From a virus, in IMG/VR virus record IMGVR_UViG_3300045988_105798, positions 1 through 27,077 of that record: a DNA stretch of 27,077 bases, one strand, 5' to 3'. The notes beneath the pieces are model-generated. The model had not been told where the DNA came from, did not search any database, and saw nothing but the letters and a program-made list of their open reading frames with translations. Position 1 is the first letter of the stretch; each line of letters begins with the position of its first letter. Below are positions 1,945 to 27,077 of this stretch, one piece after another. The position numbers were made by a program, and so were the translations under genes.

Positions 1945-2172
1945 ATGATATTACTAAAGAATTCCAAAAATACGCAGACTTTCTATATTGCCAAAAAGAC
2001 TGGAATAGAAAAAGGTCAATTACCCATTGGTAGTTATTCAAAATTAGAAGTAGATGCTTTATTTCAACCAAAAGGAGACTATATAACTGCTAATGAGTAT
2101 AATAACAAGATCAACGAGCTAGAAGCAACAATACAAGAGTTACAGAGTAAGTTAGCAGATTCTGATAAATAA
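1945..2172 (+). CDS. Small fibre-associated coiled-coil protein (75 aa)
   Basis: Intact ORF. Its C-terminal heptad-like segment is NKINELEATIQELQSKLADSDK. The YSKLEVDALFQPKGDY segment resembles repeats in the main fibre. Confidence 0.5.
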   Translation: MILLKNSKNTQTFYIAKKTGIEKGQLPIGSYSKLEVDALFQPKGDYITANEYNNKINELEATIQELQSKLADSDK

Positions 2173-2241
2173 TGTCAGTATTTTTATTATAACTTAAAGT
2201 GAGTAAAAAACTTGACATTAAAGGAGACATTTGTCTCCTTT
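2171..2241 (+). promoter_or_regulatory. Conserved intergenic element, copy 1 (AATGTCA box, T-rich spacer, GTGAGTAAAAAACTTGACA, hairpin)
   Basis: The core motif is at 2199-2217. AATGTCA (2171-2177) is inverted relative to TGACATT (2213-2219). A hairpin, AAAGGAGA/TCTCCTTT, is at 2220-2241. The element lies 101 nt upstream of the 2318 start. Confidence 0.6.
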
Positions 2242-2317
2242 AATTTTATTACTGTATCTAAAGTATTTATATTTTAGAAAAAAGATATGTAAAATTAATG
2301 TAAAACTATTGCAAATT

Positions 2318-4874: not shown

Positions 4875-5531
4875 ATGGAAAACAAATTAAAATGATTCGG
4901 ACAGGTACTTGATTGAGTTAATAAATACGGGTTATGACAGATTATAAAAGGCGGATTTGCATTTATATTTGTATCTTATGTCTTTATAATCTCTCTAAAT
5001 CCAGGCATTATATATGATAAGGTTGTTACTTACATAGAAAAGGTTCATAACGTTAAGCAAGTAACCAGACAAGATGCAGACATCAAAATACGTTACATCT
5101 TGAAAGATTTAAGATTATCTACAAATGCAGATAGAGCTTGAGTTATTGAGTACCATAACGGTACATCTGGATTAGGAGGACTTCCATTTACATACGGAAT
5201 TATGAACAATGAAGAATTAGAAGAAGGAGTAAATTCAGTGTCTAGACATTATAGAGACTTCTTGTTATCTGAGTATTTGTTTATTTTGGAGACTTCTAAA
5301 CAAGGTGGATGAATAGGTAGTGTTGAGGATATAAAACAGTATGATACAAAAATGTACTATTCGTTTAAATCTAATGGTGTTAATAAATTAGCTTTATTTT
5401 ATTTAAAATCGGAATACAGAGATATTGGAGTAGTCGGCCTTTCATATTGTGATAATGAGATGCCAGAAGATACTTGAGTTAAATTAAGAGATGCAGGAAT
5501 AAAAATAAGCATAATTTTAAATAAAGAGTAA
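4875..5531 (+). CDS. Membrane-anchored protein with a possible GAF-like soluble domain (218 aa)
   Basis: ATG 4875 to TAA 5529-5531 is one frame with six in-frame TGA codons. It has an N-terminal hydrophobic helix (IIKGGFAFIFVSYVFIISL). It is invisible in the standard-code ORF track. Confidence 0.6.
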
Positions 5532-6289: not shown

Positions 6290-6320
6290 AAGGGAGCCTT
6301 TTGAGCTCCCTTTTCTTTTT
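6290..6320. terminator. Bidirectional intrinsic terminator between convergent arms
   Basis: The stem AAGGGAGC (6290-6297) pairs with GCTCCCTT (6305-6312) and is followed by ttttcttttt. An A-run lies upstream. Confidence 0.7.
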
Positions 6321-6419
6321 AATAGATAATCTTACCAGTTTGCAAATCTACTAAGAATTTACTATTTTCGGGAATTACATAAACGTAATTTACTCCATTT
6401 AAGCATAATTTATATCATA

Positions 6420-6554
6420 TTAGTCAATATATGTTGCGTTAGGAATCTCTGGTTTTTCTTCTACTTCTTCCCAAACTAAACCTCTATTCTGGTTTTCTAG
6501 TTGAACTATTCTGTATTCTAGTTCTTCAAGCTTTTTAAATAAATAATCATCCAT
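6420..6554 (-). CDS. Hypothetical small protein (44 aa)
   Basis: Sequence is MDDYLFKKLEELEYRIVQLENQNRGLVWEEVEEKPEIPNATYID. Trp is encoded by TGG. Confidence 0.45.
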   Translation of the reverse strand: MDDYLFKKLEELEYRIVQLENQNRGLVWEEVEEKPEIPNATYID

Positions 6555-6556
6555 AA

Positions 6557-6712
6557 TTAATCAAATTTAGAAATAAACATATAATCTTTATCTTTTAATA
6601 CTTTATCTATAATATCACCAAATCTTTTAGTAGCCTCTTTACATTCGAGCATTCATTTATCCAATTCTTTAATATACTCTTCTGTTTCTTTAATTGTTTC
6701 TTTAATATCCAT
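6557..6712 (-). CDS. Hypothetical small protein (51 aa under code 4)
   Basis: Sequence is MDIKETIKETEEYIKELDKW(TGA)MLECKEATKRFGDIIDKVLKDKDYMFISKFD. Under the standard code it would split at TGA-ATG into 19-aa and 31-aa ORFs. Confidence 0.4.
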
Positions 6713-6784
6713 AATTAAAATATTTTAATAAATGTCTATTTTTTACTCAACTAATGTATATAGATAAAAATAAAAATAGACATA

Positions 6785-8503
6785 CTAATTTTTAAAGACA
6801 TACTTTTTACCTATAATAGTATATCCATAAGATCTGTTTCCATTCACTGATTTTTTAGTTACCTTAACTTCATAATATTTTGTAATATCAGTAGCTTTAG
6901 CATTAGTTTTATTAACTAAATCATAAGCTTTTTGTAGTATCTTTTTAATATCAGTATTAGAATACCACATACCTAAAGTTATATTTTGATTAAGTTTATT
7001 TGCTACTTTATTATCTACAGATTTATCTGAAGTTTTAATAAGTTCATCTTTTATTTTAGTAATACAGTATTTTAGAGTGGCCATTTTATTGAATCCAAGT
7101 TTAGTAATAGCATCCATTAACCAAGGGTATTTAATAAGAGCATCATCTAATTTTGGGGTGTTTACCTTATATAAGGTTTCATATTCCTCTCTTACTTCTT
7201 TAATTATATCTTTAAATGCTTTTGTTTTAGTATTTAGATCTATTTTTATAGAATTATCATATTGTTCTACCACTTTATTAAATCCTTTATTAATATATTC
7301 CTTAGAAAGATTAGCTCTAGCAGAATACAGTCCTCTAGATACTTTAAAATTAAATAAATCAATTTTAGCCATATTAGGGTCAAATTCAAATACATCATCC
7401 CAATTTAATTTAATGTATGCATCAGAAGTAAATTCTCTAAGTTTCTTTTTAGCTATCTCTGGAAGTTTATTGTATGCTTCTACAGCAATTTTAGTTTCTT
7501 CAATATTCTGGATATTAAGCTTTTTAAATTCTTCATAAGATATATCAGCATATCTTGTTGTAGAATAAATGTGAGTTATCCAATTAATATATTTACTATT
7601 TCTAATTCTACCAGCAATCTGCTGTATAGAAGTTGATATATCAAGTAATGTATTAGCTTTACTTGGATCAGATATAATTATTATCCTTCCATTTTCATCA
7701 TAAATATCTGAACCTTCAAATACAGTTGAAGTTAATAAGTTGATCTTTTTAGGTTCATCTAAGACTGTTGAATTAGGAATTGACAGTTTAGTTTTATTGT
7801 TTTTGGAATATATAACTCTGGTATTATTAGATGTTAATTTGGCTTTCTTAATAAGGTTCTTTATAAAGTCTACTGAATTAACGAATATGTAGGCGTTACC
7901 TTCAACCTGTCCGTTTAAAAATCCATTTATAAGTTTAATAGTAGAAGCTTCTACATTATCACATTTAACAGTTTGCACTTTTACATCTATAACATCATCC
8001 CATTCCTGCTTTACTAATTCTAAATCTTTTAATTCATCTAATACAAACTCTTCCTCTAAAGGTGTTGCTGTCATAAATGTAAAATTACCAAATAATTTAT
8101 AATATTTAAGCACTGATTGAATAGCAGAGCTTCTAAAGCTATACTGATTAAAGAGAATATGATATTCATCAATTAAAATGCTAAACTCTTTAGGATTAAT
8201 TGCAGAAATAACTTTATAAAGAGAATCATAGGTAACAATGATTTTAGGGCATTTAACACTATCTACATAATCTTTAATCTCTTTAATAGTAACACCAGCA
8301 TAAACTCCAAATATCTTCTCAGTACGTCTTTCATTTGGATATTGTTGAAGTTTATTTTCAACTAAGCTAGTAAATGGAACACAAATAACATAAGGCTTAT
8401 TGCATTCAATTGCCATTGAAGTTCCTCCACATCCAACTTTTCCTTTATCAAATAAGCAGTTAGTTGGCAACTCATTAATAATTTCATTTAAATATGTTTT
8501 CAT
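6785..8503 (-). CDS. Superfamily-2 DExH helicase (572 aa)
   Basis: Start taken at MKTYLNEII (8503). It has a P-loop-like GKVGCGGTS, ILIDEYH (DExH), MTATP (motif III) and QQIAGRIRN (motif VI). It has no in-frame TGA, and all 5 Trp are TGG. Confidence 0.8.
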   Translation of the reverse strand: MKTYLNEIINELPTNCLFDKGKVGCGGTSMAIECNKPYVICVPFTSLVENKLQQYPNERRTEKIFGVYAGVTIKEIKDYVDSVKCPKIIVTYDSLYKVISAINPKEFSILIDEYHILFNQYSFRSSAIQSVLKYYKLFGNFTFMTATPLEEEFVLDELKDLELVKQEWDDVIDVKVQTVKCDNVEASTIKLINGFLNGQVEGNAYIFVNSVDFIKNLIKKAKLTSNNTRVIYSKNNKTKLSIPNSTVLDEPKKINLLTSTVFEGSDIYDENGRIIIISDPSKANTLLDISTSIQQIAGRIRNSKYINWITHIYSTTRYADISYEEFKKLNIQNIEETKIAVEAYNKLPEIAKKKLREFTSDAYIKLNWDDVFEFDPNMAKIDLFNFKVSRGLYSARANLSKEYINKGFNKVVEQYDNSIKIDLNTKTKAFKDIIKEVREEYETLYKVNTPKLDDALIKYPWLMDAITKLGFNKMATLKYCITKIKDELIKTSDKSVDNKVANKLNQNITLGMWYSNTDIKKILQKAYDLVNKTNAKATDITKYYEVKVTKKSVNGNRSYGYTIIGKKYVFKN

Positions 8504-8525
8504 AGTTGTAATAATTTTGGTTATT

Positions 8526-8576
8526 AATTGTCTATTTTTATTTTTTCTATACACATCAGGTGAGTAAAAATTTGAC
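8526..8576 (+). promoter_or_regulatory. Conserved intergenic element, copy 4 (degenerate upstream box, GTGAGTAAAAATTTGACA)
   Basis: The core motif is at 8559-8576 in + orientation. It lies between the helicase start (8503, minus strand) and the hairpin at 8593-8613. Confidence 0.5.
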
Positions 8577-8586
8577 ACCTTAATGT

Positions 8587-8613
8587 TAAAAAGAGGCAGG
8601 ACTTTCACCTGCC
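8587..8613 (-). terminator. Intrinsic terminator on the minus strand, upstream of the helicase gene
   Basis: AGGCAGG (8593-8599) pairs with CCTGCCT (8607-8613). On the minus strand the hairpin is followed by CTTTTT (8592-8587). Confidence 0.55.
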
Positions 8614-8622
8614 TGGAATTAG

Positions 8623-8688
8623 TTAAAAAGAAATATTAAAAAATCCAAAAAATGAAGATTTTGATTTCTTGGCTTTTTCAGTATTCAT
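8623..8688 (-). CDS. Tiny leader-like ORF (21 aa)
   Basis: Sequence is MNTEKAKKSKSSFFGFFNISF. It lies between the minus-strand promoter (8722-8753) and the terminator (8587-8613). Coding status is uncertain. Confidence 0.2.
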   Translation of the reverse strand: MNTEKAKKSKSSFFGFFNISF

Positions 8689-8721: not shown

Positions 8722-8753
8722 CAAATATACAACATATTTTTTCAATTTCCAAA
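8722..8753 (-). promoter_or_regulatory. Bacteroidota-type promoter (minus strand): TTTG-N20-TATATTTG
   Basis: CAAATATA at 8722-8729 and CAAA at 8750-8753 on the + strand read as TTTG-N20-TATATTTG on the minus strand. Confidence 0.6.
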
Positions 8754-8800
8754 TTTTTGAGGTATTATTTTCATAAAAATTTTTCTCGTATTTCGATATA

Positions 8801-8831
8801 CAAATATAATAATAATTTTTTAATCTGCAAA
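8801..8831 (-). promoter_or_regulatory. Bacteroidota-type promoter (minus strand): TTTG-N19-TATATTTG
   Basis: CAAATATA lies at 8801-8808 and CAAA at 8828-8831 on the + strand. Confidence 0.55.
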
Positions 8832-8832
8832 A

Positions 8833-8864
8833 TTTGCATATTAAATATAAAATACTTATATTTG
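8833..8864 (+). promoter_or_regulatory. Bacteroidota-type promoter (+ strand): TTTG-N20-TATATTTG
   Basis: TTTG is at 8833-8836 and TATATTTG at 8857-8864, 46 nt upstream of ATG 8910. Its -33 element is back-to-back with the minus-strand -33 element inside the palindrome TGCAAA-A-TTTGCA. Confidence 0.6.
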
Positions 8865-8909: not shown

Positions 8910-9725
8910 ATGAAAACAGTAAATAATTGATTTAGAAATAATCCAGATTGAAAAAGTAAAATATTTATAGAACGCTATTTAAAGACAACTGGATGTAATG
9001 TTATTTGGAATTCTAATCAATATTCTAAATTCGATGGATATATTGATTATAATAATAAAAGAATTCCTCTCGAACTAAAAGTGAGAGATTTATATTCATT
9101 CTCTTATAAAGAAACACTTATTGATTACAAAAAATATATAAATCTAGTAAATGATAAGGGTATATTAATAGTTATATTTAAAGATTGCTTTATAATATTT
9201 AAAGATGTAAAATCTGCTTTTAATAATAGTCATTTTATATACTGTAGATCTACAACATCATTTGATGGATATTATGGTAACTTTCAAAAGTGTTATTTAA
9301 ATATTGCTAAAGGTAAAAAAGTTAATATAGATACAACTTTTTGTTATACTGGAGAAATATGAAAGAAAATTAAAGGCTATGATTATGAAGTTAGTACAAA
9401 CGGTAATATTAGAAATAAGTTTGGCAAATTATTAAAACCGCATTATATAAAAGGTTATTATAATGTATGCTTATATTCTAATAAAGTTAGAAAAGAATTT
9501 ATGGTACATAGATTAGTAGCTGATACATTTATTGGGATAAATTCTGAACTAGAAGTAAATCATATTAACGAAAATAAACTTGATAATAGAATTGAGAATT
9601 TAGATGGATGCTTTATAAGGCAATATCCAGGAGCAGGATATGCTGCAACTACTATTAAAGATGCCTGTCGAGGAAGATTTGGGCATAACAAAGCTGTAGG
9701 ATATATGTGAGCTTATGAACAATAA
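8910..9725 (+). CDS. Fusion of a PD-(D/E)xK-like nuclease domain and a NUMOD4/HNH homing-endonuclease domain (271 aa under code 4)
   Basis: A single frame with TGA at 8928, 8946, 9360 and 9708. The N-terminal part has FDGYIDYNNKRIPLELK (a D...ExK pattern). The junction reads GEI-W(TGA)-KKIKGYDYEVSTNGNIRN. It continues HRLVADTF...EVNHINENKLDNRIENL and ends GYMW(TGA)AYEQ. Confidence 0.65.
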
Positions 9726-10017
9726 TGAAATTTTAGAAAAGTATTATCCATTTATTTTGGAATTAAAGCATAAGTTTGGAGCTAATGATGATTGTACTCA
9801 AATGATATGTATAGACATACTGGAAACACCTCATTCTAAACTCCAAAGTCTTCATAATAAGAATGAATTAAAATATTGAATTACCAGAGTATTTAAAAAC
9901 TACTGGTTTTCTAAAAATAGTAGATATTACTATCAATATAAGAAATATTATGAGATAGTTAAGGAACCTATTGAACAGCAAATTATCGATGAAGAAAACT
10001 ATGCAGAAGAAGATTAA
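9715..10017 (+). CDS. Sigma-70-family region-2-like protein (100 aa)
   Basis: ELKYW(TGA)ITRVFKNYWFSKNSRYYY resembles ECF sigma region 2 (WL..IA.N...d..R). It has an acidic C-terminal linker and ends at TAA 10015-10017. Confidence 0.45.
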
Positions 10018-10246
10018 CATAGATGATATTATGGCGGAATATGATTTAGACTTTAGTATATTTACAGAGATGAATGATAGATTAATTGAAGTATATCCAA
10101 AATGGACATTTCTAAATAAAGCCGATAAAACAGTTATGGTGTTATATGCCGAATATCAAAGTTATAGAGAAGTTGGAAAGATACTTGGAATTAGTCATAC
10201 AACTATACAACGATTTATAAAGCAAATAAGAAATAAATTATGTTAA
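9989..10246 (+). CDS. Sigma-70 region-4-like HTH protein (about 85 aa)
   Basis: LNKADKTVMVLYAEYQSYREVGKILGISHTTIQRFIKQIRNKL fits a region 4.2 / LuxR-type HTH. It is in the +1 frame relative to 9715-10017 and overlaps it by 29 nt. The start is uncertain (ATG 9989, 10001 or 10031). Confidence 0.5.
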   Translation: MKKTMQKKINIDDIMAEYDLDFSIFTEMNDRLIEVYPKWTFLNKADKTVMVLYAEYQSYREVGKILGISHTTIQRFIKQIRNKLC

Positions 10247-10569: not shown

Positions 10570-10590
10570 CAATTATATATTTTATAGAAA

Positions 10591-11351: not shown

Positions 11352-12596
11352 ATGAAAACATATATAGGTTATAGACCATTATTATATCAGAAGAAGGTTC
11401 ATATAGCTATGGCAGATGCTTATAGATCAGGTAAAGTATATACAATTAAAGCTAAACGACAAGTTGGTAAATCTTTACTTGCCGAAAATGAACTTTTAAG
11501 ATTTACAATAAATTATCCAGGTACAGTTAATTGCATAGTTGAACCTACTTTAGGCCAATCTAGAAGGGTATTTAAGGAAATAGTTAATGCAACAATAGAT
11601 TCTGACATTATAAAGAGAAAGAATGAAACTCTTTTGGAATTAGAGTTTACTAATAATAGTTCAATACTCTTTAGATCTGGAGAACAGATGGATTCTTTAC
11701 GAGGATTCTCAGTAAGTGGATTACTTGTATTAGATGAAGCTGCTTATTTAAAAGATGAAGTATTTGAGATTATAAAGCCTACTACAGACGTATGATCTGC
11801 TCCAATCTTAATAATTAGTACACCTAGATTTAGAGAGGGATTCTTTTATGAATGCTTTATAAAAGGACAGGATCCAAAATATGAAAAGTTTTATAAGTCA
11901 TTCGATTGAGCATTAGAAGATACATCTATGCTGCTTGATAAAGAGAAGCTGGAACTGTATCGATTAACTACTTCCAAAAATAAATTTAAGACTGAATATC
12001 TTGGAGAATTTGCAGACGATGATGGATGTCTATTTAATAACATATCAGAATGTATATTAAGTGAAAAACCTTCATATACAAACCTTTATATAGGAGTAGA
12101 CTGAGCAACTGGAAGCGGTAACGACTATACTTGCGTCACTGCTTTAAATGAAAAAGGCCAAATGGTATTTATTAAATATTTTAACGATAAAACTCCAACG
12201 GAACAGGTTGATATACTGACATCTATACTCTCTGAATATCAAGATGTTATAAAGACAGTACAAGTTGAACAGAATTCAATTGGTAGTGTTTTTTATGATA
12301 TGCTTATTAAGAAGAATCCTAAAATACATATAGTTAAGTTTTTAACTACTAATTCTTCTAAAGCTAATCTTGTTAATAAGCTACAAGCTGCCTTAGAGAA
12401 TGGTAAAATTAGATTATTAAAAGAAGATAAACTTTTAAATGAGTTGAGGTTATATGAAGCTAGTTATAATCCGAGAACTGGAAAAGTAACATATAACGCA
12501 CCATCTGGCTTTAATGACGATACAGTTATTTCATTAATGTTAGCCTATGACTCATTAAATACAAACAAAGGACATTATAATATTAAAGTTAAATAG
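11352..12596 (+). CDS. terL: Large terminase subunit
   Basis: Walker A is KAKRQVGKS and Walker B is LLVLDEAAY. Nuclease motifs are GVDW(TGA)ATGSGNDYT and GFNDDTVISL. The two same-frame standard-code track ORFs (11325-11795 and 12162-12596) and the ATG-less segment between them are joined by TGA at 11793, 11907 and 12102. Confidence 0.85.
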
Positions 12597-12597
12597 T

Positions 12598-13257
12598 ATG
12601 AATGTATCAACTAAATGGGAAGAAGTGTCTTTAAAGAAATTTCAAGCTTTAAATTCATTTATTATGAGTGATGCAAAAATGACAGATTTAGATAGAAGTA
12701 TTGAAATCTATGCATTACTTACAGATAATCCTGATAAAGCTAGAGATACTCTATTAAATATGACAGTAGATCAATTATCTGCAGAACTTAATAAGATTCA
12801 TTTTATTGTAAATAAGTATAAATCTAAAGTTCCAGAAACTGAGTATGAGATTGATGGTAATAAATATACAGTTCAATTAAATCTCAGAAATATGACTGCT
12901 GCTCAGTATATTGATTTTCAGAATTTCTATAAAGATTATGAAAAAAATCAAAAGTATATATTCTTATGCTTTTTAATTCCTAAAGGAAAGAAATATAATG
13001 AGGGTTATGATGTAATGGAACTAGCAGAAGATTTATATGATAAGATTCCAATTACTATTGTTACTGATGTAATGGTTTTTTTTTGCAAATTATTAGAGAG
13101 CTTAACAGTAGCTACCCTAATCTCTTCAATGCGGGAGATGAAGAAATTGATGAAAAAGGAGAAAGATCCAGTAAAGAAATATCAATTACGGAAGAGGATA
13201 GTTCAGGCGAGACAAACTCTGAATTTAGTCAAAAATGGAACTGGCTTTGTTGAATAG
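12598..13257 (+). CDS. Possible tail assembly chaperone (G-like) protein (219 aa)
   Basis: Intact ORF ending at TAG 13255-13257. A long overlapping ORF without a start codon lies in the -1 frame, as in G/GT pairs. Confidence 0.4.
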   Translation: MNVSTKWEEVSLKKFQALNSFIMSDAKMTDLDRSIEIYALLTDNPDKARDTLLNMTVDQLSAELNKIHFIVNKYKSKVPETEYEIDGNKYTVQLNLRNMTAAQYIDFQNFYKDYEKNQKYIFLCFLIPKGKKYNEGYDVMELAEDLYDKIPITIVTDVMVFFCKLLESLTVATLISSMREMKKLMKKEKDPVKKYQLRKRIVQARQTLNLVKNGTGFVE

Positions 13258-13400
13258 ATAGAGTTAGCGAAGTAACAAGGTTAAATTGACATCAAGTATA
13301 TGATATGCAGATTCAAGAGTTTTTGAATATTATTTGCTACTTACTTGATAAAGGGAAAGAAGAAAAAAGACAAATAGATCTTTGAAAAGCTAAACACTAA
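13044..13400 (+). other. Open -1 frame without its own start codon (candidate GT-type frameshift extension)
   Basis: The -1 frame is open from 13044 to TAA 13398-13400 under code 4. It reads ..GERSSKEISITEEDSSGETNSEFSQKWNWLCWIDRVSEVTRLNWHQVYDMQIQEFLNIICYLLDKGKEEKRQIDLWKAKH. A slippery-like G-AAA-AAG lies at 13152-13158. Confidence 0.4.
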
Positions 13401-13479
13401 AATGTCAAGATTTATTTATTTTAACTACTAAAAGTGAGTAAAAACTTGACACTTAAATAGGGAGATTTACTCCCTATTT
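13401..13479 (+). promoter_or_regulatory. Conserved intergenic element, copy 2
   Basis: AATGTCAAG is at 13401-13409 and GTGAGTAAAAACTTGACA at 13434-13451. TGTCAAG and CTTGACA are inverted. A hairpin, AAATAGGGAG/CTCCCTATTT, is at 13455-13479. The element lies 71 nt upstream of ATG 13522. Confidence 0.6.
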
Positions 13480-13521
13480 GTGTTTAGATACTCACTATTA
13501 GAATGATATATTTTATTAAAA

Positions 13522-14001
13522 ATGGCAAATCAAGTTTTGGATTTTCCCAATTTAGAAGCTGTCTTAAAACAATATGGAGAACAATTAATTTCTATATATA
13601 GACAGAAATTACTACAAACTGGTTCAGATGATACAGGAACTCTTGGCAATACACTTAATTATATAGTTGAAGATCAGGATGAAGTATATGAAGTTAGTTT
13701 ACAAATACAAGATTATTGGAAGTATGTTGAGGAAGGAAGAAATGCAGGAAAGTTTCCTCCTATCAGTGATATAAAAAGGTGAATACAAACTAAGCCTGTA
13801 TTACCTCGTCCATATAATGGATTACTTCCAACTATTGATCAATTAGCATATTTAATAGCAAGAAAAATTTCTAAAAGAGGAATTGATGGAAAACATCTGC
13901 TTGAAGAATCATTAACTGAATTAGATGCTTATCTGTTATTAGATGATGCAATTACAAAAGATTTAGAAACACAAGTTGATAATGTATTTAAAAACTTTTA
14001 A
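13522..14001 (+). CDS. Tail-completion / HK97 gp10-like protein (159 aa)
   Basis: YWKYVEEGRNAG resembles the gp10-family (..yvEfGt..) pattern. TGA lies at 13780-13782 and the ORF ends at TAA 13999-14001. Confidence 0.45.
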
Positions 14002-19631: not shown

Positions 19632-21965
19632 ATGGCTGAAGAAATTAAAAAAGTAATTAGTGTAGATACTAAAACCAGTTCAAAGTCGATCAAGCAGCTA
19701 CGAGAAGAAGTAGCTGGCTTGACGGCTGAACTTGAAGATCTTGAGATTGGTAGTACTGACTATACTAAAAAGCTTGAAGAACTTGTTAATGTTCAAAATA
19801 AGTTAGGTGTTGCTACAGAATCTATGCAAGGTAAAACTGTAAATGCAGTTAAGGCGTTTGACAGTATCAATCAAGTAGCAGGAGGTTTAGCTGGAGGAGT
19901 TTCAGCTGTTAGTGCAGTATTCACTTTATTTGGAAAAGATACAGAGAATCTTCAAAAAACTATGGTTAAATTGCAAGCAGCAATTGCTATAGTTCAGGGA
20001 ATTGGAGGATTAAAAGGTTTAGGTGAAGGTATTCTTAATGGAGTAAAATCATTTAAAGCCTTATCTGTAGCAATGGGTGGTGCTACGGCTGCAACTGGAG
20101 GATTATCTGTAGCAATGGGTGTGCTACGGTCTGCAATTATATCTACAGGAATTGGAGCTTTAGTTGTAGCTCTTGGTATGTTAATAGATTTTGCAATTAA
20201 AGCAGCATCAGGAATTGATGATTTAAAAATTAGTATTTCTGGTTTAAAAGATATAACTGATCAATGAGGAACAAGTTACGCCAGAGCTAATACTGAAATT
20301 GCAGGATTGGAGAGACAAAGAGAGAGAGAGTTAGCTGCTGGTAAAAAAAGTGAAATACAAATTTGGAAAGATTATGCTGAAGAATTAGGAGATTTAGGTG
20401 CTGAATTATTTCATCATTTTGGCAGTGTAACTAAAGCATATTCTGACTCATTTACTAATATACTTAAAAGTAATGAATACTTCAAAAAAGAATTTAAGAA
20501 ATCTGGATATGAAACTTGGGAAAATTATTCCAAAGCAATACGATGAGGATTAAAGACTAGTTCTAATGAAGTTGATTTCTTTTTAAGTAAGTTAACTGAT
20601 GCTCAAAAAGCGGCTTATGAGGAAGCTTCTGGTATTTATAATACATATTTTGAGAAGCTAAATGATTTAATGCAAAAATCTGCTGCAGCTTATGAAAAAG
20701 TTAAGTTAATGGAGATTGCTGCAGAACGTAAGCAGAGAGAAGAAGCTAAAGCCCAGTATCTAAAGAAGATAGAAGAAAGAAAGAAACATAATCAAGATCT
20801 GCTTAAAGTTATTAACGATTTCTATGAAGAAAATAGGAAACTTCTTTTAGATGATGAAGCAAGAGAACTTGATGAATTAAATAGAAACTACCAGAATCAA
20901 TTAGAGGCACTTAAAGAAGCCTATAATCTCAAATTACTAACAGTTAAAGAATATAATGAGAGATTAAAGCAGTTAAATGATGCATATAATAAAGAGTGAC
21001 TAGATAATAATAATGAACGTTATAGAGAAGACTTAGAAAATAGATTATCTGCATTACAAGAAATGCAAGATAGGGAATCTCAATTATTTGCAAATAAAGA
21101 GGCTGCATTATCTGCAGGTAAATCTGGAAGTTATGAAACTAGAGTTCAACAATTTGGTTCAACGGATTTTTATCAATCTGGAGAAGATGTTCAAAGACAA
21201 TATCAAGATACATTAGCTTATAATGAACAGTTATATAATCTCACTAAAGATAGAATTACAAGAGAGAATGAATTGATGTCTCAACAGCAAGCTATTTTAG
21301 ATGAGCAATATAACAATAAGCTGATAACTGAACAAGAATATGCCAATCAATCTCAAGCAATTAAATTACAGCAAGAAGCTAATGATATAGCTTTATCAGA
21401 AGCAGCTAATGCAAGAGAAGAAGCAGATCTTCAAGCATTTAAAGATAGACAAGCTAAAAAGCAACAGGCTATTCAAGCTACTATGAATGTAGCTTCTTCT
21501 TTAAGTGGAGCTTTAGCTAATGTATTTAAACAAGAAGCTAGTGATGATAAAAAATCAGAGAAGCAAAGAGAGAAATCCTTTAAAGTTTATAAAGCATTAG
21601 CTACTACTCAAGCTATTATTGATACTATCAGTTCTGCCCAAGGTGCATATAAAGCTATGGTGGGTATTCCATTTGTAGGACCTATTCTTGCTTCTATTGC
21701 AGCTGCTACTGCTGTTATAGCTGGTATTGCTAATGTAAAAGCTATCCAAAATGAACAATTACCTTCATCTGGAGGTTCTGGAAGTGATGCAGGAACTACT
21801 GCTCCTGCTGCTTTAAATACTGCTCCTGTAGAATATACTCGAAACTTACTTGGCAATAAAGAGACTGATGAATTGAATCAACCAGTTAAATGTTATGTAG
21901 TTGAGAGTGATATTACTACTGCTCAAACTAAAGTTGCAGTTACAGAATCAAATGCAAGTTTCTAA
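19632..21965 (+). CDS. Tape-measure-like protein (777 aa)
   Basis: Four same-frame track ORFs are joined through TGA at 20265, 20544 and 20997. It has long coiled-coil stretches plus Gly/Ala-rich hydrophobic segments (GGLAGGVSAVSAVFTLFG; VGIPFVGPILASIAAATAVIAGIANV). Confidence 0.65.
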
Positions 21966-21983
21966 AGTGAGTAAATTATTGTA

Positions 21984-22028
21984 GCCTACTATGTAAGTTA
22001 CTGTAAATCAGTGCTTATATAGTAGTGC
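21984..22028 (+). terminator. Long imperfect hairpin after the tape-measure gene
   Basis: GCCTACTATGTAAGTTACTG pairs with CAGTGCTTATATAGTAGTGC. It is preceded by a partial motif GTGAGTAAA (21967-21975) directly after the stop codon. Confidence 0.4.
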
Positions 22029-22102
22029 AATGTCAAAATTTTATTTATCTTAGATACCTGTGTGAGTAAAAACTTGACAGTTATATTCTATATAAATATA
22101 AT
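22029..22102 (+). promoter_or_regulatory. Conserved intergenic element, copy 3, containing a perfect TTGACA-N17-TATAAT
   Basis: AATGTCAA is at 22029-22036 and GTGAGTAAAAACTTGACA at 22062-22079. TTGACA (22074-22079), a 17-nt spacer and TATAAT (22097-22102) follow. The element lies 81 nt upstream of ATG 22160. Confidence 0.6.
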
Positions 22103-22159
22103 TTATTAAAAGATTGTACCAATATTACATTTTTCTAACTAACTATATATTAATAAAAA

Positions 22160-22753
22160 ATGGGAAATATGTATAACGAACTGCCACTATACCAAGCAGT
22201 AATAACTGACGATTTTGATGGCATAGAATATGTAGCTTTAACATCAAAGCCAGCTACCCAAGTAAACTGGGTTGCATTTAATAACTCTTTGAAATTCTCT
22301 ATGGATGAAGATCAACATATTGTAACTTCTTGTTTAATGGTATGTGATATGCCAATTTTTAGACGAGATGACAATTTGGGAGAATATTATATCCAATATA
22401 ATAAAGAGACTTTAAGAGCAATGGCTGAGAAGATGATGAGGGATAAAAGAACTGATGCTGTTAATATAGAGCATTTAGAAGATTCTTCGATTCCTGGAAT
22501 TGTACTACAAGAACTTTACATTAAAGATGAGAAACGAGGAATTTCTCCCATAGAATTCAAAGATGTGCCTGACGGTTCTTTATTTGTAACTTACAAAATA
22601 AATAATCCTATTATTTGGGATGCTATTAAAGCTGGAAAGTTCAAAGGCTTCTCTATTGAAGGCTTATTTACTTTAGAACGTAAGGATGATGAATATACAG
22701 AACTTAAAGAGATACAAAGAATGTTGAAGAAGATAAAACGAATTAAAAAGTAA
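22160..22753 (+). CDS. Prohead protease candidate (XkdF-like) (197 aa)
   Basis: It sits ahead of the scaffold and capsid genes. The pattern ..NIEHLEDS...FVTYKINNPIIWDAIKAGKFKGFSIEG resembles XkdF-type phage proteases. It has no TGA. Confidence 0.5.
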   Translation: MGNMYNELPLYQAVITDDFDGIEYVALTSKPATQVNWVAFNNSLKFSMDEDQHIVTSCLMVCDMPIFRRDDNLGEYYIQYNKETLRAMAEKMMRDKRTDAVNIEHLEDSSIPGIVLQELYIKDEKRGISPIEFKDVPDGSLFVTYKINNPIIWDAIKAGKFKGFSIEGLFTLERKDDEYTELKEIQRMLKKIKRIKK

Positions 22754-24317: not shown

Positions 24318-24686
24318 ATGAAATATACTGGAATGATTTATCTTATTCAAAATAACATTACACAAAAAGTGTATGTCGGACAGACAACAAGAGACATTGA
24401 AACTAGATTTAAGGAGCATTGTAGAAGATCAAGTAACTGTAAAAAACTATCGAATAGTATAAATAAATATGGTAAAAATAATTTTTCTATTATTGAGTCT
24501 ATGATTCAGGCTAAAGCAAAAATTATTTATCAATATAATTTAGATGGTAGTTTTGTCAGATGCTGACCTTCTGCAAGGTCTGCAGCTAGACATTATGGCT
24601 CAAGTAAGAGACATCATATTACAGATGTATGCTCTGGTAGACGTAAATCTGCCTATGGGTTTTTGTGGAGTTTTGCAGAGGAATAA
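24318..24686 (+). CDS. Compact GIY-YIG homing endonuclease (122 aa)
   Basis: It reads GMIYLIQNNITQKVYVGQTTRDIETRFKEH (GIY...YVG...R..E). It has TGA at 24564-24566 and the tail GFLW(TGG)SFAEE. It is inserted between the capsid and major tail genes. Confidence 0.7.
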
Positions 24687-25270: not shown

Positions 25271-25310
25271 TAAGAGCGGGTAATTAATTTTACTTGCTCT
25301 TATTTTGTTT
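25271..25310 (+). terminator. Intrinsic terminator after the major tail protein gene
   Basis: TAAGAGCGGGTAA pairs with TTACTTGCTCTTA and is followed by ttttgttt. Confidence 0.6.
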
Positions 25311-25339
25311 ATAGACATTAATAATAAAAATTATATAAT

Positions 25340-27077
25340 ATGGAAAATCTATTACCCTATTTAAATGTACTTGAGGCAGACACTATTACAAGAGATAATG
25401 TAACCAAAGCCTTAGTAATAGATAAAGATGATAATATAGCTCTTTTAAATGGAGAAGATTTAGGAACTAATAATTATCAAGATCTGCAAAATAAGCCCTC
25501 TTTAAATGGTAAGACTTTAGAAGCCTCAACTAATATAGTTCCAGCAATACAGGTTCAAGCAATACCTACTAAATTGACTATTACTCCATCTTTAGGCAAT
25601 CAAACTGGACAAGCAGTTGAACTTCCTGGATATGATACAAGTACTAATGCTTCTGGTATTTTAACATCTCAAGTATTTGGTATTCTTAATGATAAGTATA
25701 CTAAAGAAGAAATAGACAATATTAACAGTGCGATTAATACAGCTATTTCTAAAAAACAAGATAAATTAACAGCAGGAGCTAATATACGAATTGTAGATAA
25801 CGTTATATCTGCCTTTAATAATCATTTATTCTTACATTTAGATGAAAATGATACAGAACATCAAGCTTATGTATATTCTTTTATTAAGTCTAATTTAGAG
25901 TTCTATTTATTTGCTGAGATCACTTACGAAGGCAAAGTAGTAGTTCTTCCTTTAGTTGCCATTGAAAACAACGAATCGTTATATTTAAAAGGAATGTATC
26001 TTAAAGATGATTCTACAATCGTTGAGGTATCTGCAGTTTTAGTAGCTAATGGTAACATAAGTGTTAATACTTCTGAAATATCAATATCTGATTATAACCA
26101 GTTGACAAATAAGCCACAGATTAATTCAGTAGAATTGTCTGGAAATAAAACCCTTGCTGATCTTGGTATTCAAGCTGCAGGTAATTATGCTTTAAAGAGT
26201 GACATTCCAACTAAAGTAAGTGAATTACAAAATGACTCTCAATTTGTAACTGAAACAGCATTAACAGACGGATTAGCTCCTAAAGCAGATAAGACTTATG
26301 TTGATGAACAATTAGCTCTTAAAGCTGATTCTACTACAGTTGAATCTTTATCTGGAGAAGTAGCTACTAATAGTACAGATATTAGTACTTTAAAGAGTAC
26401 AGTTGCAGAGAATGGTGAAAAGATTGATTCTCTTGATAAAGAGATGGCTACCAAACAGGATACTCTTGTTAGTGGAGAATCAATTAGAACAATTAACAAT
26501 CTTTCTTTATTAGGAGATGGTAATATTAATGTAGGTGATGTTCCTTCTATTACGGTAGAAAATGAACAAATACCAAATGAGACAGATTTTAATAGAGTTG
26601 CAGAAGCTGCAGCAAATGATAGAGCAGTTTTAATTAGAATTAAAACTGCTGAAATGACGTTACCCTCTAATTATTGACAGTATTCCTCTTCAGAATCTCA
26701 GAGAGGCTTTGTTGCTTATGCAACATATTTATCAGGAACTAATAACATAACTCTGATTGCATATATTCTAGAAAATCAACCAGTTATGGTAGGAACTGAG
26801 ATTGAAGAATTACAAGAAGAGTTAGTTTCTGGAACTAATATTAAAACTATTAATGGTGAAAGTATCCTAGGATCAGGTAATATAGACACTCCAGATAGTA
26901 AGGTTACTAGTGCTGCAAATCACTACACTCCTGTTGGAGGGAGTGCTACATCTGGAACTATTATAAATTCTATTACTAAGGATGAGAAAGGACATATTGT
27001 AGATATAGGGGTTGCTAATGGTATAGATGCTTCAAAAATTACATCTGGGGTAATTGATATTGAACGTCTACCCAAAG
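25340..27077 (+). CDS. Tail fibre protein, 5' portion (continues at base 56 of the window because 27023-27077 duplicates 1-55)
   Basis: ATG 25340. An in-frame TGA lies at 26675-26677 and the frame stays open to the window end. It has fibre repeats (YQDLQNKPSLNGKTL / YNQLTNKPQINSVELSGNKTL; GESIRTINNLSLLGDGNIN / GTNIKTINGESILGSGNID). The full gene is about 3,504 nt. Confidence 0.8.

Follow-up and report, generated by a model that had tools for sequence, protein, structure and literature searches.

What is the element that stands between genes at positions 13,401 to 13,479, and again at several other junctions, of the viral record IMGVR_UViG_3300045988_105798? The stretch analyzed here, called the window throughout, comprises positions 1 to 27,077 of that record (27,077 nucleotides, nt). 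An initial annotation, made from the letters alone, had described a composite of separate boxes and proposed three roles: a late promoter read by phage sigma-like proteins, a promoter-proximal terminator unit laid out like lambda PR'-tR', or a structured RNA. In this study, the repeated motif was found to be one arm of an imperfect palindrome, or hairpin, of about 56 nt, which is named H1. H1 is a real, family-specific structured repeat and resembles the intergenic hairpin repeats already known from phages. Structured RNA is the best fit of the three proposed roles, given a common hairpin, strand asymmetry, and covariation of the outer stem between clades. Our leading reading, a tentative one, is that H1 is transcribed within 3' untranslated regions (UTRs) or between operons and acts as RNA on transcript ends.

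Anatomy and copies of H1

The motif GTGAGTAAAAA(A)CTTGACA is the 3' arm of H1, and the AATGTCA box and T-rich spacer described upstream of it are the 5' arm. TGTCAAG pairs with CTTGACA, the T-run with the A-run, and ATTTAT with GTGAGT via three G·U pairs; the strand bearing GTGAGTAAAAACTTGACA folds into a hairpin of 18-20 bp, made of A·U and G·U pairs, with inverted repeats of 5-7 bp at the ends of the element. The complementarity noted earlier between the box and the TTGACA end is correct, but the description of box, spacer, and core as separate boxes is not, as together they make up both arms of one hairpin. The box upstream, (A)TGTC(A/T), is itself real: TGTCA and GTGAGT start 26 nt apart in copy 1 and 31 nt apart in each of the remaining plus-strand copies, in agreement with the gaps of 21-27 nt given in the initial annotation.

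A covariance model built from the variants finds exactly five copies in the window, at 52-67 bits; reverse complements of the copies score about 29 bits at most, where they are scored at all. Copy 1 (2168-2219, plus strand; 52 bits, E=5.5e-6, also seen by folding) begins at the TAA stop codon (2170-2172) of gene 1945-2172. It consists of the 5' arm AATGTCAGTATTTTTATTA and the 3' arm GTGAGTAAAAAACTTGACA, the latter at 2199-2217 with one extra A. Copy 2 (13398-13453, core 13434-13451, plus strand; 67.4 bits, fold -15.1 kcal/mol, z=-4.7) starts 3 nt past the TAA (13398-13400) of a frame that overlaps the end of gene 12598-13257. Copy 3 occupies 8524-8579 on the plus strand (core 8560-8577, 58.7 bits), and copy 4 occupies 22026-22081 on the same strand (core 22062-22079, 57 bits, also seen by folding). 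Copy 5 (6731-6787, minus strand, core TTGAGTAAAAAATAGACA; 65 bits) reads ATGTCTATTTTT...TTGAGTAAAAAATAGACAT, its outer stem being compensated as TGTCTA/TAGACA; it begins at the stop codon of the gene for a 572-aa helicase-like protein, 20 nt before the next minus-strand ATG (6713). A half copy with only the 3' arm (GTGAGTAAA) lies at 21967-21975 on the plus strand, 1 nt past the stop codon of gene 19632-21965. It is degenerate in the window and fuller in relatives (GTGAGTAAAATTTCTGACA). Between the half copy and copy 4 there is a separate long hairpin (21977-22032, plus strand; -23.8 kcal/mol).

The cores had been placed correctly in copies 1, 2, and 4, including the extra A in the first, and so had the truncated one at 21967-21975. 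The variant core is present as reported, at a position one base to the right of the noted 8559-8576. The claim that all copies lie on the plus strand does not hold, as the fifth full copy is on the minus strand. Matches to the 18-mer with at most three mismatches number four in the window against 0.03 expected, a count that none of 100 shuffles reaches; for the 11-mer with at most one mismatch there are six matches against 1.2 expected. Chance occurrence does not account for the repeats. No covariance model of Rfam 15 matches the window, searched over its whole length at E values up to 1.

Fold, strand asymmetry, and covariation

The five window copies and 36 variants from the family all fold into a common hairpin. 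For the four plus-strand copies, the regions comprising H1 and H2 (the GC-containing hairpin that follows some copies) give fold z-scores of -2.4 to -5.4. The fold depends on the strand: the one that bears the core is stabler than its complement in 17 of 19 variants, with means of -11.4 versus -7.6 kcal/mol. The three G's of GTGAGT stand opposite T's, which gives G·U pairs on the core strand and C·A mismatches on the other.

The outer stem is exchanged between variants and always remains complementary, as TGTCAA/TTGACA, TGTCTA/TAGACA, TGTAAC/GTTACA, GCTGG/CCAGC, or GAGGG/CCCTC. Within the window's own clade, TAGACA is seen only alongside TGTCTA. When pairs were counted in an alignment fitted to the structure, 79% of cells were paired versus 46-59% for slid partners, and eight pairs had changed on both sides; the covariation score was reached in 0 of 500 shuffles. 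Because the outer stems of sister clades differ yet stay complementary, TTGACA is not a conserved -35 box.

Two other readings of the core were rejected. A small peptide starting from its GTG was dismissed on reading the relatives' sequences, where the A-run varies between 5 and 6 and the frame shifts. Copy 2 would allow the core to pair with the terminator tail (ACTCAC at about 13491) and copy 1 would allow it in part, but the other copies would not.

Distribution in related phages

Relatives were found by a motif scan of viral contigs and by a capsid-based search, and the distant ones via the helicase-like gene discussed below. The search of related phages, a check proposed in the initial annotation, showed the element at the same junctions in dozens of close relatives. 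The outer stem is TGTAAC/GTTACA in L153 and L154 and GAGGG/CCCTC in L149, while L155 has GCTGG/CCAGC in copy 3 and TGTCTA/TTGACA in copy 2; L157 and L158 fold weakly and no longer have the outer stem. All variants keep the T-run, an apical CTTAGTAC-like motif, and AGTAAAAA. L155, a member of clade C, also carries a second copy with the 3' arm only (TATAGTAAAAATCCCAGCA) at about 9600-9650 on the reverse complement, in the early control region some 250 nt from a full copy, and this resembles the half copy at 21967 of the window.

The number of H1 copies ranges from 0 to 5 among close clades. Clade B and L156 are without copies 1 and 5, and their copy-1 junction consists of a terminator and a TATATTTTATTAAAA box only. 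Copy 2 of clade B is inverted, still between the end of an open reading frame (ORF) and the terminator. An outgroup phage, rebuilt from L148 and L096 (30,128 bp), is syntenic with the window and uses the standard genetic code; the covariance model finds no H1 in it, though both sigma-like ORFs are present. L151 and L159, whose helicase homologues are 55% identical, have no such hairpin.

Placement at the ends of transcription units

A stop codon stands 0-3 nt ahead of copies 1, 2, and 5 and of the half copy. GC hairpins had been reported to follow the core, and they do so at 2217-2244, 13451-13483, and 8594-8614, except that the T-tail of the last lies on the minus strand. H2 of copy 1 (2217-2244, plus strand; -15.6 kcal/mol), found in a terminator scan, is a 12-bp GC-containing hairpin followed by TTTATTACTG and appears to be the intrinsic terminator that closes the upstream (fibre) operon; its orthologues stand without H1 in clade B and the outgroup. 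H2 of copy 2 (13451-13483, plus strand; -15.0 kcal/mol) is a AAATAGGGAG/CTCCCTATTT hairpin followed by GTGTTT, which likewise looks like an intrinsic terminator and is kept in relatives and, with an inverted loop, in clade B. At copy 3, a GC hairpin with the T-tail CTTTTTAAC on the minus strand (8594-8614; -12 kcal/mol) stands 17 nt after the core and looks like the terminator of a short leftward early transcript or small ORF. In L046, a minus-strand frame of about 50 codons ends, by eye, just before the equivalent hairpin, and L153, L155, and L158 have equivalents with different stems. Copies 4 and 5 are not immediately followed by a GC-rich hairpin or a T-tailed terminator.

At copies 1 and 2 the order is stop codon, H1, abutting H2, box, and first gene of the next module. 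Since H1 is upstream of the terminator in these copies and in the inverted copy 2 of clade B, it would lie inside the transcript, and its position between stop codon and intrinsic terminator suits a transcribed hairpin of 3'-UTR or inter-operon RNA. The junctions without H1 (copy 1 of clade B, L156, and the outgroup) read terminator and then box, which argues that H1 is an add-on or insertion at a 3' end and not a promoter. The distances given earlier are right when TGA is read as sense: for copies 1 and 2 and the copy at 22062, the module's first gene begins 101, 70, and 80 nt further downstream, respectively.

Near copy 2, a second frame is open across the end of gene 12598-13257 (13200-13400, with its stop codon at 13398-13400), and a similar stretch was seen by eye in clade B; the frame could extend the gene by frameshifting or could belong to an overlapping ORF.

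Copy 3 and the helicase-like gene

The divergent helicase-like gene (6785-8503, minus strand) starts at 8503, 25 nt away from copy 3. Its 572-aa product shows, by eye, the superfamily 2 (SF2) motifs GCGGTS, DEYH, and QIAGRIRN and has a weak Helicase_C_2 match; it has 1,018 homologues, and scans gave no family assignment. Position and orientation of copy 3 recur in L153, L155, L157, L158, and L149. The arrangement is kept, with quite different stems, in all helicase-bearing lineages examined down to 58% protein identity. By these comparisons, the copy-3 site is the most widely conserved position of H1 and would be the ancestral one. In the window, a leftward transcript would reach the terminator at 8614-8594 after a 21-codon ORF (read by eye), ahead of the helicase-like gene.

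Several clues at this site were followed and abandoned. A promoter on the opposite strand, or for the helicase-like gene, was rejected, as no TTTG/TAnnTTTG is present at any element and no motif is conserved in the reverse complements of copy 3. A host-type promoter just upstream of copy 3 (TAATTTTG, 8512-8519) is not conserved in position in other clades. In Hymenobacter, one homologue of the helicase-like protein is encoded on the chromosome next to an integrase and to genes of Hachiman-like (HamA) type, a defence-island-like context that is uninformative on the element.

The late-promoter question

The proposal that H1 is a late promoter takes TTGACA as a -35 element for host polymerase with the phage sigma-like proteins, copies 1 and 2 then being followed by a terminator that needs antitermination. 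An element stands 70-100 nt ahead of each late module, a split sigma-like pair of the extracytoplasmic function (ECF) type is encoded, copy 4 offers TTGACA-17-TATAAT, and the hairpin at copy 3 would not stop rightward transcripts. We nevertheless regard this reading as very unlikely. TTGACA is not conserved as a sequence, sister clades having GTTACA, CCAGC, or CCCTC with the other arm compensating. A -10 hexamer 16-18 nt downstream is found in copy 4 only, whereas copies 1-3 carry the hairpin there; the TATAAT of copy 4 belongs to a box, and relatives read TATATT or TATATA at that site. A bipartite -35/-10 with a fixed spacer of 15-17 nt is absent: the conserved block is contiguous, nothing is conserved downstream of it, and copy 2 of clade B is inverted relative to the genes it would drive. 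Transcripts begun at copies 1 and 2 would end within about 35 nt. Other -35/-10 pairs within the element (TGTCA box with core, loop TAC, core TAAAAA) were rejected, having spacings of 26-31 nt or unconserved sequences. The Bacteroidota sigma-A promoter has the consensus TTTG at -33 and TAnnTTTG at -7 (PMC7366714). Host-type promoters here are of this TTTG/TAnnTTTG form, and a pattern scan found none inside the element or at the right distance from it. Nor does H1 accompany the sigma gene throughout, as the outgroup has both sigma-like ORFs and the TATATTTTATTAAAA box without H1. The layout likened to lambda PR'-tR' requires a promoter within the element and falls with this idea.

A better candidate for the late promoter is the TATATTTTATTAAAA box, which, from its sequence context, is likely to serve as such. 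In the outgroup, eight exact 15-mers stand directly before late genes, often right after a terminator. In the window the box occurs once exactly and four times nearly so, always on the plus strand and in four of the five cases just before a start codon, and comparison with relatives shows it conserved while its flanks diverge. The exact match (13507-13521) ends at the ATG at 13522. The TATATTTTA box at 2268-2276, downstream of the copy-1 terminator, is the candidate late promoter of the portal-lysis module. A box-like TATAATTTATTAAAA (22097-22111) follows copy 4 after 17 nt and reads TATATTTTATTAAAAG in relatives; because H1 adjoins this box, a seemingly perfect TTGACA-17-TATAAT arises there. 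A further box-like site (22144-22158) stands just before the ATG at 22160. The box TATATTTTATAGAAA (10576-10590) precedes gene 10591 with no H1 nearby, so the box is independent of H1. Boxes lie 7-18 nt before the start codons of late genes, and at the distances seen in the window, messages would have almost no leader, a rarity in Bacteroides.

The gene products of 9715-10246 had been called sigma-like, and this was borne out: two plus-strand ORFs, 9715-10017 and 9989-10246, match the N- and C-terminal halves of TIGR02937 (positions 4-100, E=0.0016, and 118-161, E=1.5e-5), with Pfam Sigma70_r4 matches. One ORF is region-2-like and the other region-4-like; they lie in different frames, and the split is found in all relatives and the outgroup. 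It may represent either two proteins or a programmed frameshift. Searches of PDB sequences with both ORFs returned no match. The late sigma factor of phage T4 is similarly split, into gp55 and gp33, and its late promoter consists of a -10 element only. By analogy with gp55/gp33, the box would be the natural target of the sigma-like pair, which is probably not a reader of H1. No Q-like antiterminator family was recognized among the window proteins in PHROGs, Pfam, and NCBIfam scans.

Interpretation and rival explanations

The hairpin, its strand asymmetry, covariation, placement, and phylogenetic distribution were observed directly. From them we infer, as a possibility that falls somewhat short of being probable, that H1 is a transcribed 3'-UTR or inter-operon hairpin acting as RNA on transcript ends. 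It would form a second long hairpin at the ends of messages, where it may mark a processing site for a double-strand-specific RNase, and/or may shield the upstream message from 3' exonucleases and insulate adjacent operons, in the manner of T7 RNase III sites and bacterial REP hairpins (repetitive extragenic palindromes). The next module would start from its own TATATTTTA(TTAAAA) box, and the other copies may have been duplicated within the clade from an ancestral copy beside the helicase-like gene. Several points weigh against this reading. The pair counts come from an alignment already fitted to the structure. Template switching can keep the arms of a DNA palindrome complementary without any selection, which makes covariation less telling here than in an ordinary RNA. 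That the five copies of one genome are nearly identical may mark recent duplication and not constraint. The hairpins of L157 and L158 have decayed (-5.9 and -5.6 kcal/mol, z about -0.3 to -0.6). No gene precedes copy 3 on the strand that bears it, and in the sense of the helicase-like gene this copy sits after a terminator instead of before it; its orientation to that gene is fixed in seven variants from at least six lineages, which a hairpin tolerant of orientation would not predict.

A serious rival, though in our judgement an unlikely one, is a selfish or neutral palindrome resembling repetitive extragenic palindromes (REPs) or miniature inverted-repeat transposable elements (MITEs), copied or converted into tolerant intergenic sites by terminators and without a dedicated function. 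This would suit the variation from 0 to 5 copies between close clades, the lack of any copy in the outgroup and of copies 1 and 5 in clade B and L156, the copy inverted in place, the near-identical paralogues within one genome, the half copy decaying in the window, the decay in L157 and L158, and the terminal inverted repeats of 5-7 bp. The flanks of H1, read in the window and in relatives, bear no consistent target-site duplication, however, and no transposase or RAYT-like family was found among the window proteins scanned. Moreover, the helicase-adjacent copy holds position and orientation across lineages as distant as 58% protein identity, most copies point the same way as transcription, and the fold is strand-asymmetric. 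A DNA-level site, that is, an operator, origin-like palindrome, or loading site for the helicase-like protein or for the sigma-region-4-like helix-turn-helix (HTH) protein, seems rather unlikely. It draws on the presence of H1 in helicase-bearing lineages to 58% identity and its absence from the outgroup, which has no helicase-like gene. Copies 3 and 5 flank that gene in inverted orientation in the window, the orientation of copy 3 relative to it is fixed, and the AGTAAAAA core, T-run, and apical CTTAGTAC are conserved where the outer stem is not. On the other hand, one protein is unlikely to read outer boxes that differ within one genome (copies 2 and 3 of L155), and the G·T oppositions in place of Watson-Crick pairs speak against a duplex palindrome. 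Such a site gives no rationale for placement before terminators. L151 and L159 have helicase homologues without the hairpin, and the Hymenobacter homologue belongs to a defence-island-like context and not to a replication module.

That H1 is a cis-acting antitermination RNA of the HK022 put or lambda nut type, by which the nascent hairpin, with or without a phage factor, lets polymerase pass H2 and make long late transcripts, is quite unlikely. H1 is indeed directly upstream of terminators in copies 1 and 2 and in copy 2 of clade B, there is a two-hairpin layout with a sequence core conserved across copies, and the helicase-like gene, lying behind a terminator, needs read-through or its own promoter. 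Yet neither a GC-rich hairpin nor a T-tailed terminator comes right after copies 4 and 5, and at copy 3 transcription in the sense direction would meet the terminator before the element. RNA made from the inverted clade-B copy would differ in sequence, and with a box of its own for each module, read-through is not needed. Neither an N-, Q-, or NusG-like gene among the window proteins scanned nor an Rfam match was recognized. It is comparably doubtful that H1 is a cis signal, as RNA or single-stranded DNA, for a clade-specific factor, of which the SF2 helicase-like protein would be the best candidate, its gene adjoining the ancestral copy in every case, that controls terminator read-through or transcript fate. 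If true, this would be a new hairpin-plus-helicase control of transcript ends in Bacteroidota phages that read TGA as tryptophan (Trp). A mimic of a CRISPR repeat (Cas12a-like handle) was rejected, the likeness being superficial and the stem failing to form in most copies.

Comparison with known systems

The RNase III sites of T7 (R0.3, R1.1, and others), described by Dunn and Studier, are reportedly related hairpins of about 50-60 nt with a stem of about 20 bp and a small bulge or internal loop. They lie in the leader of the first early gene and between operons, and the processed hairpin remains at the 3' end of the upstream message. H1 likewise comes in several related intercistronic copies, each a hairpin of about 20 bp interrupted by a bulge or internal loop. 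In contrast to the T7 sites, its stems are almost purely A·U and G·U, copies abut intrinsic terminators, a sister clade has one copy in inverted orientation, and copy 3 runs antisense to the neighbouring gene. HK022 put and lambda nut are found just downstream of promoters, act on distant terminators, and have a fixed orientation. Like H1 they are conserved RNA hairpins upstream of the terminators of phage operons; unlike them, H1 is not preceded by a promoter, and two copies have no following terminator. Bacterial REPs and bacterial interspersed mosaic elements (BIMEs) are GC-rich chromosomal sequences of about 35 nt that are mobilized by RAYTs and have been proposed to stabilize upstream mRNA and aid termination. 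They share with H1 an imperfect palindrome, a 3' untranslated or intercistronic location, and variable copy number and orientation; H1 differs in having five copies in a 27-kb phage, with no RAYT-like gene among the window proteins scanned.

The PeSLs of T4-like phages are composite motifs of a stem-loop and a promoter (PMC4122927, PMC2839356). The H1 region resembles them as a family-specific composite cassette, with a hairpin or terminator by a promoter motif, repeated at module boundaries. At copies 1 and 2 a box follows H2, and the same pairing occurs without H1 in clade B and the outgroup, H1 itself being an additional part. A PeSL conserves a short GC stem-loop followed by a sigma-70-type early promoter, whereas here conservation falls on an additional long A·U hairpin that comes before the terminator, and a different box, with the look of a -10 element only, is the promoter candidate. 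Some H1 copies, like PeSLs, seem to lie at mosaic junctions: the copy-1 junction is variable, and a block of identity with L004 ends after the copy-3 hairpin. This block, the leftward helicase module (6328-8623), is 97% identical to L004, with flanking modules at about 73%. Sequence identity of this kind indicates a recent exchange, ending just past the copy-3 hairpin and at the bidirectional terminator 6290-6312. Alignment boundaries fall within 150 nt of an element in 59 of 531 cases versus 7.2% expected by length (about 1.5-fold), while all intergenic DNA, 5.8% of the genome, holds 24% of them, a stronger enrichment than that near elements. With enrichment this mild, a PeSL-like role of H1 in module exchange is possible.

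The phage family is very abundant in human faeces, and the signals described here are a first map of its transcription organization, comprising Bacteroidota-type early promoters, the TATATTTTATTAAAA box (probably late) with the split sigma-like pair, intrinsic terminators, and H1. If H1 is a processing or stability signal, it would be a compact and portable part for controlling transcript ends in Bacteroidota, for which few such tools exist; should it be no more than a selfish palindrome, it would still be a useful marker of recent clade evolution. More generally, TTGACA in a repeat is not evidence of a promoter where the host does not use that consensus.

Genome, genetic code, and host-type signals

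The window has a GC content of about 30%. As its first and last 55 bases are identical (exact repeat at 1-55 and 27023-27077), it represents a genome of 27,022 bp that is either circular or terminally redundant. The fibre gene from 25340 runs across the circle junction to position 390. It is preceded at 25271-25339 by a strong terminator (13-bp stem) and then TAGACA-16-TATAAT ending at the ATG of the fibre gene, without H1.

The standard genetic code was rejected for the window, as it breaks the terminase, portal, and tape-measure-like genes. With TGA as sense these are whole again, and plus-strand coding rises from 14.4 to 21.3 kb. Aligned with the standard-code outgroup, TGA positions are mostly W and never G. 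On this alignment, the phage decodes TGA as Trp in both its early and its late genes (e.g., 11352-12596, 4875-5531, and 8910-9725). The capsid, protease, scaffold, and helicase-like genes have zero TGA codons. No tRNA gene is present in the window or in 46 related loci, so that a suppressor tRNA, or H1 as a tRNA-like RNA, was rejected.

No Shine-Dalgarno sequence precedes any listed gene start of the window. A pattern scan found full TTTG/TAnnTTTG promoters only at 8722-8864, plus one intragenic site. This early divergent region holds three on both strands with the form TTTG-N19-20-TAnnTTTG (plus strand 8833-8864; minus strand 8753-8722 and 8831-8801), and both leftward ones sit inside a 37-nt direct repeat. 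The reading of TGA as Trp occurs without any phage tRNA, and the promoters and missing Shine-Dalgarno sequences point to a Bacteroidota host. Distant homologues of the capsid and helicase-like proteins are present in Bacteroidota genomes. A capsid search returned 3,212 related proteins, most of them encoded by contigs about 30 kb long, and the relatives are abundant contigs of that size in a human faecal co-assembly. DNA and capsid-protein searches of GenBank phages (50,697 records) found no relative and no cultured member. Homing-endonuclease-like genes lie at 8910-9725 and 24318-24686 (NUMOD4 with HNH, and GIY-YIG-like); further ones stand elsewhere in relatives, and the outgroup has three HNH copies.

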